From positions 50,486 to 114,485 of the forward strand of contig CAXXUE010000002.1 of the NCBI GenBank assembly GCA_963662475.2: DNA of 64,000 bases. Reading direction: 5' to 3'. The DNA is from an uncultured Pseudodesulfovibrio sp. (GTDB taxonomy: Bacteria; Desulfobacterota; Desulfovibrionia; Desulfovibrionales; Desulfovibrionaceae). Shown piece after piece: positions 30,798-50,737 of the stretch. A program made the translations under genes and the position numbers. Every line of letters begins with the position of its first letter. Positions within the stretch are counted from its first letter, which is position 1. Below the pieces are notes generated by a model that worked only from the letters and a program-made list of their open reading frames with translations, ran no database searches and was not told the DNA's origin.

Positions 30798-32327
30798 TCA
30801 ATTCTTGGGCATGACAGCTGCCTTGACAGGAGGCTCCACATCCAAAACCGGACAGAGGAACAAGGAGACGGTGGTGCCCTCGCCGGGCACACTAGCCAAC
30901 TCCACATGGCCGCCGCACTCCTCAATGATCTTCTTGATCATCGGCAGACCGAGGCCGCTGCCGCCTTCCTTGGTCGAATAGAACGGATTGAAGGCCTGGT
31001 CCTGCTCGTGCTCGCTCATGCCGATACCCTGGTCCATGACCTTGATCAGAACTTCGCCCTTTTCCAGGCCGATCTCAAGGGTGATGACACCGCCGTTGCG
31101 CATGGCCTCAATGCCATTCTTGATGAGGTTGACCAGACATTGCTTGATGGCGTCCTGGTCACCCTGAACCGACGGCAGGACTTCGTCCGCCACGACCTCC
31201 ACGCTATACCCCTGCTGACCGTAGCCAATATCCATCAGTTCGCCCACGTCCTTGCAGACGCTCAGGATGTCCACGGAACCTCCCGGCGCGTGTGAGGAGC
31301 GTGCAAAATTGAGCATATTGGTGAGCATCCGGTCCAGCCGCTTGGTTTCATTGACGATGATCTGCACCTTTTCCCGCTCCTTCTCCCCCAGTCCGGGGGA
31401 CCGCAACAGGGAATTGGCAAACCCGCCCACCGCAAAAAGCGGGTTGCGGATCTCGTGGGCCAGGTAGGTGGACATCTCGCCGATAACAGCAAACTGATCC
31501 CGCTGCTGCTTATACTTCTCCCGATGGGTCCGCTCCGTGATATCCCGATGCATGACCATGATGTGCGTCATGTTTCCCCGAATGTCGTAGATGGGATAGG
31601 CATAGAGCCGATAATACTGGAGCAGGCCGCTTCCGTTGACCCGTGTAACCAGGGATTCCTCTTTTCCGCCGCTCTGCAGGGTCTTGTGAAACGGGCAGAT
31701 CGGGTCGAGATGGCTGCAAAAGCAGGAGCCGTCCCGCAGACGGGCCGCGTTCCAGCACGGCTTGCCCAGCAGACTCTTCCGGGAAACACCCGCCCGCTGC
31801 CAGACAATACGGTTCAAATCCACGACATTGCCGCTCTTGTCGAGCAGAAAGATATCCTCCCGGATCTCGTCGATGATTGATTGTATCAGGGTACGCTGAT
31901 GATCCATCTGGTTCATGTAGTTGCTCTTGACCAACGCCATGTCGTGCAGACCGCAGAAAAACACGACCTGCCGATGGTCCATCAGGGAGATGGAATTCGG
32001 CAACGCCCGGCGCAACTGCGCCAGCACAGCCATATCCCCGGTCATTTCGACCACCAGATTGATTTCAGGATGACTCGCGACCATCTCGTCCCAGGTCGTG
32101 TATACCGGACAAGACACCTCGCTCAAGCAGGCCTCCACCTCGACCCCGTCAGGGCAGCTCACAGCACACAGCTTCATCTCCGGCAGAAATTCACGAAACG
32201 CCTCGTTGTAGACGATGTCCACCAGGATACCCAATGCCGATCCGGAACCGACCACCCCCACGTTGAAGGGCCCCATGGTGCCATTCCAATAACATATCCC
32301 CAGATTCTCGTACGCAAAATCACCCAT
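30798..32327 (-). CDS. Cytoplasmic histidine kinase (Rossmann-like N-terminus, PAS)
   Basis: AHEIRNPL, NLIKNG, DQGIG, GSGLGL; no evident TM. Confidence 0.9.
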   Translation of the reverse strand: MGDFAYENLGICYWNGTMGPFNVGVVGSGSALGILVDIVYNEAFREFLPEMKLCAVSCPDGVEVEACLSEVSCPVYTTWDEMVASHPEINLVVEMTGDMAVLAQLRRALPNSISLMDHRQVVFFCGLHDMALVKSNYMNQMDHQRTLIQSIIDEIREDIFLLDKSGNVVDLNRIVWQRAGVSRKSLLGKPCWNAARLRDGSCFCSHLDPICPFHKTLQSGGKEESLVTRVNGSGLLQYYRLYAYPIYDIRGNMTHIMVMHRDITERTHREKYKQQRDQFAVIGEMSTYLAHEIRNPLFAVGGFANSLLRSPGLGEKEREKVQIIVNETKRLDRMLTNMLNFARSSHAPGGSVDILSVCKDVGELMDIGYGQQGYSVEVVADEVLPSVQGDQDAIKQCLVNLIKNGIEAMRNGGVITLEIGLEKGEVLIKVMDQGIGMSEHEQDQAFNPFYSTKEGGSGLGLPMIKKIIEECGGHVELASVPGEGTTVSLFLCPVLDVEPPVKAAVMPKN

Positions 32328-32371
32328 GAATCTTCTCCGTCATATTCTTCCACCCCAGATGCCGAACGCCG

Positions 32372-48122: not shown

Positions 48123-48223
48123 CAATAGCCATTGACAACAAGCAGAACTGAGCATAACCGGAATAAAAAAAGAGACAAGTTCTTTTTTCCGCAACACGGG
48201 CCACACCGCTCCGGAGGAACCCC

Positions 48224-50737
48224 ATGAATGATCCCCAACCCACCGAAAAACGCACTTTCCTACCGCTCAGATTCGCTGCCAAAATATTGCCCAAATTGGG
48301 CCTGCGGGGCAAACTGCTTGTGGCCCTCCTGCCATCCATTGTTGTCATCCTGTTGGTAACGGGCTACGCCTCGTACAAGGTTTCGGAAGGATTTATCGGT
48401 ATAGCCCTGGAACGGTCCGTCAAGGTGCACACCTTGGCCGTGGCACATGAGATGGAGGAATTCCTCGACCATTGCAAAAAGGACCTGCTCTTTTTCGCGC
48501 AAGGGGAAATGACCGTTGCCCCGCTGCGCAACCAACTGGAAAGAAGGCTGCGTGCCGGAGCCATCCCGTATCTCGAATTGTGCTACCTGCCCGCTTCGGG
48601 CGGCCAACCGATCATACTCGTCCGGCAAGGGAAAACCATCAGGGAATTGACCCCAAAAGAATACGGCGCTGTCAGTCCCTCGCCTTTCGAAGAGCTTGAC
48701 AGACTCGACACACTCACGCCGGGGCAGGTCATCCCGTCCGGCATCATGGAAGTCACCCACCCCATATCCGGCGGACAGGCATCGAATCTCCAAGTGAAGT
48801 CCCATGTCATCCGTTTTTATACGCATATTGCGGGAAATGGAACCTATCCTCCCGGGATTTTATTCCTTTCGGTGGAAGCCTCGACCTTCCGCAACATCCT
48901 CTCCTGGTACGATTCCAAGGAGTCACCGCTGTGGGCGTTTCCCCGTAGCGACGAACTCCGATTCAGTTATTTTCTGAATCCTGAAGGCTGGATTCTCTTC
49001 CAGTCGGAAGCGCTGCAAAAAACGAACGCGGAACTCACCACCTACCTCGCCCGCGAGAACTTCAAGGGAACGCTCGGCAAGCGGGGCCATGGCACGGCCT
49101 TCCGGCCCAATGACAACAATCCCCGCTACTGGAAGGCAGTGGACACGATCAACAAGGGCACACACGGCATCGAGGTGGTGCCGGAAGAACGGGTGAGACA
49201 ATCCGTGGTCGACTCTTTCTATTTCAGCTACGCGCCGGTGATCTTCCGCACCACCCTGGACGGTCAGCCCATGGTCTACGGCGGCGTCGTCTTTGTGGAC
49301 CGAAGCCAGTTGCCCGCCTTGGCGGGCTACAAGAACCTGGATATGATGCTCTCGGTCACTGCCGGAGCTATTGTTCTGATTTCATTTCTTATTTTCTGGT
49401 TCGGGCGTGTTTTCACCAAACCGATCCGCGCCCTGGCGGACAAGATGAATTCTCTGGATTCGCTCGAATCCATGGAGGAAATCCACCTGCCGTACAGCGG
49501 CTTCGACATTGTCAGGCTCCAGGATTCCATCAACAACATCATCAGAAAAGTCAAAGAACAGGTCCTGGAAATCAAAGTCAGAGACGAGGCCATTCTCAAC
49601 GTGAACAAAAAGGAACGCGCCTCGCTCGAAAGAGAACGCGCCCTGCTCGCCGAAACCGAGTTCAGTCGAATTCCCGAAATCATCGGCCAGGGTGCGGCCA
49701 TTTCCAACATGAAGGTCAATATCCTCAAGGCGGCACAAGCGGACGTGGATGTGCTCATTTCCGGTGAGACCGGCACCGGCAAGCAGTTGGTGGCCGAAGC
49801 GACCCACAACAACAGTGAGCGCTCGGCAGAGCCATTCATTGCCATCAATTGCGGTGCGTTAGATGAAAACCTCCTGCTCGATGCGTTGTTCGGCCACGTC
49901 AAGGGTGCCTTTTCCGAAGCCAAGGAAGACCGCAAGGGCGCATTCATAGAAGCCAACAAGGGCACCCTCTTTCTCGACGAAATCCAGTCCGCCTCGGCCA
50001 AAGTGCAGCAATCCCTGCTCCGCGCCATCGCTTCACGAAAAATCAAACCACTGGGCAGCGACAAGGAACTGGATGTGGACGTGCGCATCGTGGCCGCGAC
50101 CAACGTGGACATCCCCTCCCTGATCGAACGAAAGGCCTTCCGCGAAGACCTGTACTACCGGCTCAAGGTCGTCTCCATAGCGACCCCGCCCCTGCGGCAA
50201 CACCCGGAGAACATCCCGCTCCTGGCGGTCTACTACCTGCAACAGGCCGAACAATTGGCCGGACGTACCAACCTGGGCCTGAGCAAGGGAGCCATTGCCA
50301 AGCTGATGTCCTACGACTGGCCCGGCAACGTTCGCGAGCTGGTGAACAGCATCACTCGGGCCGCGATCATGGTTGAATCCGACACCATCCAGGCCGAGGA
50401 GATCCGTCTGGAAAACGAAACTGAAACGGCACGCGAACAAGTTCCCGTCTTTGACCAAAGTGCGGACGAAGTGGAAGAATCGTCTGCCGCCTCCTCCGAA
50501 TCCCATGAGGCCAACGGGAAAAAGGGCACATCCCCTTCGCTGAACGCCCGGCAAAAAACCGCCTGGTCCGCCATCCAGAAACAGGGCACCGTCACGCGCA
50601 AGGAATACCAGGAACTGGTCGGCGGCCAACTCCCCACCCGGACCGCCATCTACGACCTACAGGATTTCGTGAAGCGCGGTCTGCTTGTCAAAAAAGGCAA
50701 GGGCCCCTCCACCCGGTACGAAGTCATCAAAAAGTGA
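48224..50737 (+). CDS. Membrane-anchored sigma54 enhancer-binding protein (periplasmic sensor, HAMP, AAA+, winged HTH)
   Basis: Two TM, GETGTGKQ, GAFSEA, FLDEI, REDLYYRL, WPGNVREL; no receiver domain. Confidence 0.88.
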   Translation: MNDPQPTEKRTFLPLRFAAKILPKLGLRGKLLVALLPSIVVILLVTGYASYKVSEGFIGIALERSVKVHTLAVAHEMEEFLDHCKKDLLFFAQGEMTVAPLRNQLERRLRAGAIPYLELCYLPASGGQPIILVRQGKTIRELTPKEYGAVSPSPFEELDRLDTLTPGQVIPSGIMEVTHPISGGQASNLQVKSHVIRFYTHIAGNGTYPPGILFLSVEASTFRNILSWYDSKESPLWAFPRSDELRFSYFLNPEGWILFQSEALQKTNAELTTYLARENFKGTLGKRGHGTAFRPNDNNPRYWKAVDTINKGTHGIEVVPEERVRQSVVDSFYFSYAPVIFRTTLDGQPMVYGGVVFVDRSQLPALAGYKNLDMMLSVTAGAIVLISFLIFWFGRVFTKPIRALADKMNSLDSLESMEEIHLPYSGFDIVRLQDSINNIIRKVKEQVLEIKVRDEAILNVNKKERASLERERALLAETEFSRIPEIIGQGAAISNMKVNILKAAQADVDVLISGETGTGKQLVAEATHNNSERSAEPFIAINCGALDENLLLDALFGHVKGAFSEAKEDRKGAFIEANKGTLFLDEIQSASAKVQQSLLRAIASRKIKPLGSDKELDVDVRIVAATNVDIPSLIERKAFREDLYYRLKVVSIATPPLRQHPENIPLLAVYYLQQAEQLAGRTNLGLSKGAIAKLMSYDWPGNVRELVNSITRAAIMVESDTIQAEEIRLENETETAREQVPVFDQSADEVEESSAASSESHEANGKKGTSPSLNARQKTAWSAIQKQGTVTRKEYQELVGGQLPTRTAIYDLQDFVKRGLLVKKGKGPSTRYEVIKK

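Follow-up and report, generated by a model that had tools for sequence, protein, structure and literature searches.

A conserved signalling island with a DASS permease and a PEP-synthase-like protein in an uncultured Pseudodesulfovibrio

Gene content and organization of the island

The DNA analysed here is a stretch of 64,000 nucleotides (the window) from an uncultured Pseudodesulfovibrio sp. (assembly GCA_963662475.2, contig CAXXUE010000002.1, positions 50,486 to 114,485), which carries at positions 30798-50737 an island of signalling genes that includes an anion permease and a phosphoenolpyruvate (PEP)-synthase-like protein, hereafter PPS*. The gene inventory was based on an open reading frame (ORF) listing, Pfam and NCBIfam scans, and independent gene calls on the identical public contig. 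It comprises four HisKA histidine kinases, four single-domain receivers, a fifth receiver with a CBS pair (REC-CBS), a permease of the DASS/SLC13 family, a 49-aa peptide, a weakly matching Yip1 protein, PPS*, and a sigma-54 activator. As a whole, the island is a real and conserved module, whose cluster type and activator family are already in the literature. The nearest relatives of every island protein were found in Pseudodesulfovibrio, and searches for Rfam families and tRNAs found none in the window.

Twelve genes form a minus-strand operon that spans 42957 down to 30798. In order of transcription, these encode REC152 (152 aa, 42499-42957), REC-CBS (299 aa, 41589-42488), the DASS permease (616 aa, 39706-41556), the 49-aa peptide (39480-39629), the Yip1-like protein (181 aa, 38919-39464), REC127 (127 aa, 38410-38793), PPS* (867 aa, 35789-38392), the dCache_1 sensor kinase HK561 (561 aa, 34107-35792), REC132 (132 aa, 33721-34119), the short kinase HK305 (305 aa, 32807-33724), REC141 (141 aa, 32372-32797), and the PAS kinase HK509 (509 aa, 30798-32327). 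The operon is compact, with spacers of at most 125 nt and overlaps at four gene junctions, and a terminator-like hairpin with a T-run lies 3' of its last gene (30695..30711, minus strand). Outside the operon, the island region contains a gene for a 1006-aa protein (plus strand, divergent from the operon), a monocistronic gene for a second dCache_1 sensor kinase, HK559 (559 aa, 46315-47994, minus strand), and, divergent from the latter, the gene for the sigma-54 activator EBP837 (837 aa, 48224-50737, plus strand).

A first-pass annotation, made from the sequence alone, had described four kinases, four stand-alone receivers and one REC-CBS protein, with a PEP-synthase-like protein, an SLC13 transporter and a 49-aa peptide embedded among them; the family scans and gene calls recovered all of these. 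Its gene boundaries required correction. It had used longest-ORF starts, and several true start codons give shorter genes. A 207-aa ORF at 38893-39516 had been taken wrongly as a gene, the Yip1-like gene being the one given above.

Kinases and receivers

All four kinases contain the H-box HEI(N/R)NPL, and the phospho-acceptor set DD / D / T / K is intact in all five receivers, each of which was assigned by Pfam, as were the kinases. Family scans revealed no output domain other than the CBS pair in these receivers. They carry REC alone or REC with the CBS pair, in line with the earlier remark that no receiver has a DNA-binding output, and none of the five is the DNA-binding response regulator that marks a classical two-component transcription system.

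The kinases differ in their input regions. HK561 and HK559 possess dCache_1 sensor domains, and HK305 is a two-transmembrane (TM) kinase without a sensor domain; a short-kinase and receiver pair like that of HK305 was found again in other PPS* loci. HK509 is cytoplasmic, with a PAS-HisKA-HATPase arrangement. Residues 1-140 of HK509 (31908-32327) showed a weak match to an NAD-binding Rossmann family (GFO_IDH_MocA, E 0.005), which hints at a possible redox or nucleotide input. The HK561 gene overlaps the PPS* gene on one side and the REC132 gene on the other, and REC132 is likely to be the partner of this dCache kinase. REC127 is encoded directly upstream of PPS*.

Permease and small membrane partners

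The DASS/SLC13 anion:cation symporter matched Na_sulph_symp with an E-value of 3e-47 and scored 229 bits against TIGR00785 (cut-off 198.6 bits). It has an N-terminal extension of ~165 aa, consisting of one TM segment and a hydrophilic domain. The REC-CBS gene lies 32 nt upstream of the permease gene, and in most other loci with CBS or REC-CBS genes the DASS gene directly adjoins them. The 49-aa peptide, a single-TM protein without a family, and the five-TM Yip1-like protein are both kept beside this DASS type. The first-pass label of the latter as YIP1 can be retained in part, as the five-TM gene does match Yip1, with a score that falls just under the cut-off (27.9 against 28.6 bits).

Two further observations concern the permease. 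A sediment contig (L088) encodes, at 16405-18261, a DASS protein that shares 76% identity with the window permease along the entire length, and the PPS* of this contig is only 43% identical to its counterpart in the window. Either a far stronger constraint on the permease than on the rest of the module or its movement between lineages could explain this. Across loci, at least four DASS subtypes accompany PPS*.

The sigma-54 activator and its candidate promoters

EBP837, an enhancer-binding protein (Sigma54_activat, E 2e-60), is composed of two TM segments with an external region of ~325 aa between them, a HAMP-like linker, and an AAA+ domain with a GAFSEA loop and Walker A motif. Its description in the first-pass annotation as a membrane-anchored sigma54 activator without a receiver is upheld by the two TM segments and by a family scan that gave no Response_reg match. 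The C-terminus gave no HTH_8 match; a weak yet consistent similarity was observed there to families of winged-helix domains and to the winged helix-turn-helix of a Fic C-terminus (best E-values 2e-5 and 0.13). The sensor region had no Pfam match and few homologues (67). A Cache assignment for this region was considered and not adopted, as profile-profile comparison with the dCache domains of both kinases gave a probability of 0.6%.

Two sigma-54 promoters were identified, both intergenic and correctly oriented. The first, TGGCACGATGATTGCT (48107-48122, minus strand), is a perfect consensus located 113 nt before the start codon of the HK559 gene. The second, TGGCATGTTGGTTGCT (42995-43010, minus strand), has one mismatch and lies ~40 nt before the 12-gene operon. 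Loose sigma-54 matches across the window are no commoner than chance. Both promoters were found at matching positions in six orthologous loci (L003-L006, L008, L009) from Pseudodesulfovibrio, D. caledoniensis and Maridesulfovibrio, so the near-consensus promoters that the first-pass annotation had placed at 42995 and 48107, pointing into the kinase/receiver operons, prove to be conserved across genera.

Two TTTTGCG(C/T)G repeats (43066..43095) lie 55-85 nt upstream of the operon promoter and represent a candidate site for an activator of the type of DVU0151 from D. vulgaris, described below. Within the 113-nt leader of HK559, downstream of its promoter, an inverted repeat TTGCGCAAAAGACACTCTTTGCGTGA with a T-run is present (48063..48088, minus strand), and TTTGCGC-like elements occur at the same leader spot in L004 and L006; this repeat may be either an activator site or an attenuator-like hairpin. 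TTTTGCG-type repeats are present in the orthologous intergenic regions as well. On the basis of this shared, low-information TTTTGCG-type motif, EBP837 is predicted to drive both promoters.

Relation to the DVU0151 regulon

DVU0151 has been described as an activator that lacks a receiver, possesses a GAFSEA loop and terminates in a winged helix, and it is the predicted activator of DVU0150-DVU0146 (PMC4641369). This target operon includes a TSUP permease and has a divergent sigma-54 promoter, and the predicted DVU0151 sites resemble TTTTGCGCGATCAG (PMC4641369). DVU0145-DVU0150, of which DVU0145 is a stand-alone receiver, were up in sulfate-free syntrophic co-culture, down on return to sulfate respiration, and otherwise unregulated (PMC4265775).

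Two distant loci, L166 and L167, connect this regulon with the island. Both encode homologues whose alignment with EBP837 extends from end to end, with the sensor region and the winged-helix part included. In both, a PPS* gene follows the activator gene and overlaps it. On its other side the activator gene faces an operon that codes for a Pfam 'DVU0150'-family protein, a TauE permease and three small proteins, as described for D. vulgaris. L167 also encodes, further downstream, a REC protein, a CBS protein, a DASS permease, a dCache kinase and two receivers. The operon layout in these two loci, rather than comparison with the DVU0151 sequence itself, suggests that EBP837 is an activator of the DVU0151 type. 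The target operon with a DVU0150-family protein and TSUP is not present in the window.

Conservation and recurrence across genomes

Eighty genome loci were fetched with the 1006-aa protein as the anchor and were then searched with the proteins of the window. Synteny extends over the full arrangement (12-gene operon, lone dCache kinase HK559 and activator EBP837) in six genomes, which represent three genera (the six loci named above, from Pseudodesulfovibrio, Maridesulfovibrio and D. caledoniensis); the arrangement is reshuffled in L007 and partial in L010. The surroundings of PPS* were examined in 80 metagenome contigs and in three distant genomes, from Syntrophobacteraceae, Thermodesulfobacteriota and Elusimicrobiota. 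The neighbourhood conservation that the first-pass annotation had proposed as a check is thus observed, with the genes occurring together in the six syntenic loci and a core set of PPS*, single-domain receivers, dCache kinase and anion permease recurring in ~80 unrelated PPS* contigs.

Around PPS*, a recurring pattern was observed. A TauE/TSUP permease and its ~230-aa two-TM partner immediately precede PPS*, the single-domain receivers number one or two, and dCache kinase-receiver pairs are present, often with an additional short kinase-receiver pair. A minority of the loci have DASS as the permease, in most cases with an immediately adjacent gene for a CBS or REC-CBS protein. The same pattern is found in the three distant genomes. 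Features within 8 genes of PPS* were counted in 79 loci. Receivers were present in 59 of these, TauE/TSUP in 49, kinases in 44 and dCache kinases in 30; DASS and sigma-54 AAA+ proteins were each found in 13, universal stress proteins (Usp) in 12, and CBS proteins in 10. The permease pair is directly upstream of PPS* in 46 of the 65 loci with upstream sequence. Among the non-kinase receivers near PPS*, 95 of 130 (73%) are single-domain. Sigma-54 promoter-like sites numbered 52 in the PPS* modules, compared with ~20 in shuffled sequence, and 41 of the 52 are on the PPS* strand. No recurrent metabolic enzyme was found beside PPS* in ~80 loci. PPS* is the most constant member of the module, a point that appears to be new.

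The ~230-aa protein deserves a separate description. It has no family and follows the TauE/TSUP permease, upstream of PPS*, every time (L083-L165; for example L083 7658-8380). It consists of an N-terminal TM segment, a ~165-aa external domain, and a C-terminal TM segment ending in KKAKVKKEV. No sequence similarity was detected between this protein and the DASS N-terminal extension, the Yip1-like protein or the 49-aa peptide; the topology alone is similar.

The PEP-synthase-like protein

PPS* (assigned by Pfam to PPDK_N and PEP-utilizers) consists of a ~115-aa N-terminal helical region, an ATP-grasp domain, a swivel domain and a ~300-aa C-terminal domain. Residue conservation was judged across 63 homologues. 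The ATP-grasp domain (PPDK_N, E 1e-80) displays invariant RSSxxGED and QDxEW motifs, and in the swivel domain (PEP-utilizers, E 5e-15) the catalytic His518 is invariant in all 63 sequences. Similarity to PEP synthase is confined to residues ~118-570; the matches stop at about residue 570, and the PEP/pyruvate TIM barrel is absent. Because this C-terminal TIM barrel is missing, PPS* is not a PEP synthase. When the whole PPS* model was used in Foldseek, the PDB alignments covered the N-terminal two domains only.

The C-terminal domain contains many invariant His, Asp, Arg and Gly residues, with the motifs CxTLHDITRFxHE, GFHF, KGGAADxxRRxRR and HTRQLDM, and is a novel, family-specific domain that occupies the place of the barrel. 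An exhaustive search identified it in 1163 clusters at 50% identity. PPS* represents a large, uncharacterised family of enzymes whose genes nearly always lie next to those for single-domain receivers and anion permeases. Among the matches listed, it is located at the C-terminal end, mostly in proteins of ~830-900 aa; the shorter proteins that carry it are probably fragments. At the other end of the protein, the N-terminal helices were evaluated as a histidine phosphotransfer (HPt) domain, which was rejected as a conserved histidine is lacking there.

Neighbouring genes outside the module

The 1006-aa protein (43265-46285, alternative start 43217, plus strand) had no Pfam or NCBIfam family match. 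Its model (pLDDT 83) combines an N-terminal half that resembles PHP phosphoesterases with a helical membrane part, and Foldseek retrieved 3o0f, 3e0f, 9etk and 2yb1 with E-values from 2.5e-6 to 5e-4 and a target TM-score of ~0.6. The copy of the window has Arg in place of the first histidine of the HxH motif, and the membrane part contains invariant GFIPAF...RN..Q..GGGG motifs. More than 1550 homologues with 45-50% full-length identity were found across Desulfobacterota, in more than 550 species genomes. In ~70 other anchor loci (Syntrophales, Desulfobacterales, Desulfobulbaceae and others), the gene is present without the island genes. Membership of this protein in the module was ruled out, as no neighbour family occurs in more than 10 loci (75 genomes). 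The first-pass description of a 1000-aa PHP-like protein therefore holds at the level of the fold, without sequence support, and its placement in the module does not. Upstream of the gene, some Desulfobacterales loci have a sigma-54-like promoter, and a few others have a pair made up of a kinase and an NtrC-type regulator.

Adjoining the island on the minus strand is a ZraPSR-like envelope/metal-stress module (25796-30610). A Metal_resist/ZraP-like gene (30015-30524), with a sigma-54 promoter-like site, TGGCACGTCCCATGCT (30595-30610), ahead of it, belongs to this module, as do genes for a DUF4405 protein (29029-29889) and a histidine kinase (27206-29020) and a 469-aa ORF (25796-27205) that is probably the NtrC-type regulator. 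Elsewhere in the window, a DDE transposase gene (DDE_Tnp_1_4, 16760-18175, minus strand) lies beside genes for a solute-binding protein and a HAMP-PAS kinase and is unrelated to the island.

A proposed circuit for anion uptake

We propose that the island forms a single regulon for the regulated uptake of an inorganic anion, most probably sulfate or a sulfur oxyanion akin to it, an overall picture to which we assign an even chance. That the anion is sulfate specifically is put forward more tentatively, with somewhat less than even confidence. The phosphotransfer steps, the protein targets and the substrate in what follows are those that we infer. EBP837 would sense an external or envelope cue, probably anion scarcity, through its periplasmic region, and would open both sigma-54 promoters, that of the HK559 gene and that of the 12-gene operon. 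The dCache kinases would read an external ligand, the sensor-less HK305 would probably read the permease, and the PAS kinase HK509 would read a cytoplasmic cue. These kinases would phosphorylate the single-domain receivers, which, because they have no DNA-binding domain, would act via protein binding. REC-CBS would act on the DASS permease, integrating an adenosyl or ionic ligand, and REC127 would act on PPS*. PPS* in turn would phosphorylate its own swivel histidine from ATP and pass the phosphoryl group, at its C-terminal domain, to a receiver, a transport protein or the imported anion, a step that would couple transport to the energy state of the cell.

The chemistry of the PPS* family would allow a protein or a small-molecule acceptor. 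A protein, either a receiver or the permease complex, is somewhat more likely, because the gene context is purely regulatory. The more specific idea that PPS* is an ATP-driven phosphohistidine protein that trades phosphoryl groups with the output-less receivers or the permease complex, thereby gating the uptake of sulfate or another anion by energy state at the post-translational level, is one that we regard as doubtful at present. If true, PPS* would represent a histidine-kinase-independent entry into two-component signalling.

Sulfate reducers switch between high- and low-affinity sulfate accumulation and stop uptake fast, and no study has yet settled which carriers and which control circuit are responsible (PMC5840216). 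DASS and TSUP proteins are candidate sulfate carriers, and two DASS genes of D. autotrophicum react oppositely to the sulfate level (PMC5840216). The first-pass annotation had suggested uptake or metabolism of an organic acid or other anion; the anion permease module stands, whereas the published context favours sulfate or an inorganic sulfur oxyanion over an organic acid, and there are no catabolic genes alongside. The island provides a complete candidate circuit for the post-translational control of sulfate uptake, with a sensor-activator, two promoters, four kinases, five receivers, a CBS-coupled DASS permease and PPS*.

Alternative explanations and points against the proposal

One alternative is that the island is an organic-acid module, in which the DASS permease would import a di-/tricarboxylate or related anion, PPS* would be a small-molecule dikinase that phosphorylates this compound or something made from it, and the kinases would sense the compound. 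Membership in the DASS family alone permits carboxylates, and dCache_1 domains commonly bind organic ligands. PPS* is nearest to PEP synthase and rifampin phosphotransferase, and PEP synthase, phenylphosphate synthase and rifampin phosphotransferase phosphorylate their substrates. To our knowledge, the characterised PEP-synthase-like dikinases all act on small molecules or glucans, enzyme I of the phosphotransferase system (PTS) aside. The invariant Arg, His and Asp residues of the C-terminal domain are also what an anion-binding active site would have. This explanation is nevertheless unlikely in our view, as no catabolic or biosynthetic enzyme accompanies PPS* in ~80 loci, the pyruvate/PEP barrel is missing, and PPS* stays while the permease is swapped (TSUP, several DASS subtypes); moreover, the homologous D. 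vulgaris regulon follows the presence or absence of sulfate respiration. Alternatively, PPS* could serve as the phosphodonor of the relay, its phosphorylated swivel histidine transferring to a receiver aspartate or a transport protein independently of the kinases but dependent on energy, like enzyme I of the nitrogen PTS. PPS* retains an intact ATP-grasp domain and its catalytic His, the context consists nearly entirely of signalling proteins and permeases, many loci have receivers directly upstream of PPS* or its permease, and in other genomes the PPS* gene overlaps the activator gene. A swivel domain of the same superfamily phosphorylates the protein HPr in the PTS. We know of no precedent, however, for a PEP-utilizer swivel domain that passes phosphate from His to Asp; the N-terminal helices have no conserved histidine and are not an HPt domain, and four ordinary kinases are already encoded alongside the five receivers. 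We therefore treat direct phosphodonation by PPS* as questionable.

A different view of the receivers is that they act as phosphate sinks or connectors, while the true outputs of the kinases are DNA-binding regulators elsewhere, in a conventional transcriptional network. The HisKA boxes of the kinases resemble those of NtrB/AtoS, the receivers resemble that of NtrC, NtrC-type REC-AAA+ regulators adjoin the module in some related loci, and a ZraSR-like system adjoins the island itself. Against this stand the kinase and receiver genes of the operon, which overlap or abut, the wide recurrence of the pairing of a dCache kinase with a single-domain receiver, and the output-less state of 73% of the nearby receivers, and we judge it improbable. 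The proposed circuit and signalling to DNA-binding regulators encoded at a distance may operate side by side. Finally, unrelated signalling genes could have come together by chance, given that Desulfovibrionaceae genomes are rich in two-component genes and that the window has no more loose sigma-54 matches than expected by chance. Synteny across genera, the same combination across phyla and the conserved promoters make such juxtaposition very improbable, and it is disfavoured.

Several findings weigh against the circuit for anion uptake proposed here. With regard to the signalling part, assignment of receiver orthology by best match left the kinase-receiver pairs unassigned, and the island kinases could signal to regulators encoded elsewhere. 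With regard to transcription, a weight matrix of nine published DVU0151 sites ranked neither promoter region above the window background, and in the HK559 leader the TTTTGCG-type motif sits downstream of the promoter. The substrate is affected by the breadth of the permease families, as DASS proteins also transport di- and tricarboxylates and TSUP substrates are varied. The module is also present in an Elusimicrobiota metagenome-assembled genome, and we know of no sulfate reduction in Elusimicrobiota. The D. vulgaris expression data cover the TSUP operon and not DASS, and syntrophy alters more than the sulfate supply. The C-terminal 297 aa of PPS* gave no Pfam match at E<=5 and no PDB sequence-profile match, and the sequencing runs found to contain the sequence were DNA only, with flat depth.

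Comparison with known systems

The closest published counterpart is a 30.5-kb Desulfosarcina cluster, in which DASS proteins, found to be abundant, are encoded together with numerous two-component systems of the Cache type and with CBS, REC-CBS and universal stress proteins (PMC11887813, 2025). Related clusters were reported in 26 sulfate reducers, including Desulfobacteraceae and Desulfovibrio-type genomes, and were proposed as sulfate-uptake loci with external sulfate sensing and a second, CBS-based intracellular control; sulfate transport was inferred there from protein abundance and family (PMC11887813). The island shares the central DASS permease, two dCache_1 kinases with two further kinases and five receivers, and a REC-CBS protein beside the permease. 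It differs in that no Usp match was found in the island, and its receivers are all output-less, whereas WalR-type regulators are named for the published cluster. The consulted parts of PMC11887813 contain no mention of a PEP-synthase-like protein, sigma-54 control or a DVU0151-type activator, and no mention of a PEP-synthase-like protein was found in the consulted parts of PMC4641369, PMC4265775 and PMC5840216 either. The link that PPS* makes between the DVU0151 regulon, the syntrophy-induced cluster and the DASS clusters appears to be undescribed. The first-pass annotation knew of no mechanistic description of such modules, and as far as these sources go this holds, although the cluster type itself had already been described (PMC11887813, PMC4641369). 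The island joins three strands of the literature, namely the DVU0151 regulon, the syntrophy-induced DVU0145-0150 cluster and the Desulfobacteraceae DASS cluster.

EBP837 and DVU0151 have in common the lack of a receiver, a long N-terminal region, a GAFSEA-type loop and a divergent sigma-54 promoter. DVU0151 has a winged-helix C-terminus instead of a Fis-type helix-turn-helix, and EBP837 shows weak winged-helix matches. The DVU0151 regulon and the island each encode an anion permease and have a stand-alone receiver. Their targets differ, being DVU0150, TSUP and lipoproteins in D. vulgaris, and in the island a dCache kinase and the operon of DASS, receivers, kinases and PPS*.

A sensor-less kinase beside a transporter, like HK305, is also found in PhoR with PstSCAB/PhoU and in the intramembrane-sensing kinase BceS with BceAB, and uptake of an inorganic anion regulated by its supply offers a further parallel. 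Both the PhoR and BceS systems end in a DNA-binding regulator, in contrast to the island receivers, which have no output domain.

PPS* shares with PEP synthase, pyruvate phosphate dikinase and rifampin phosphotransferase an ATP-grasp domain and a swivelling phosphohistidine domain. Its domain order is like that of PEP synthase, and its best matches are PEP synthase 2ols (Foldseek E 9e-24) and rifampin phosphotransferase. It has neither the TIM barrel nor the rifampin-binding domain of these enzymes, possessing ~300-aa C-terminal and ~115-aa N-terminal parts of its own, and all its NCBIfam scores in the dikinase superfamily are far under the cut-off. In function, it may be compared with the regulatory nitrogen PTS (EI-Ntr, NPr and EIIA-Ntr), in which a PEP-utilizer paralogue regulates potassium transport, a likeness of functional analogy only. 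That system uses PEP and has HPr-/EIIA-like partners, whereas PPS* is proposed to use ATP and receivers, and homology is confined to the swivel domain. The regulatory nitrogen PTS controls ion transport through protein phosphorylation and protein-protein contacts.

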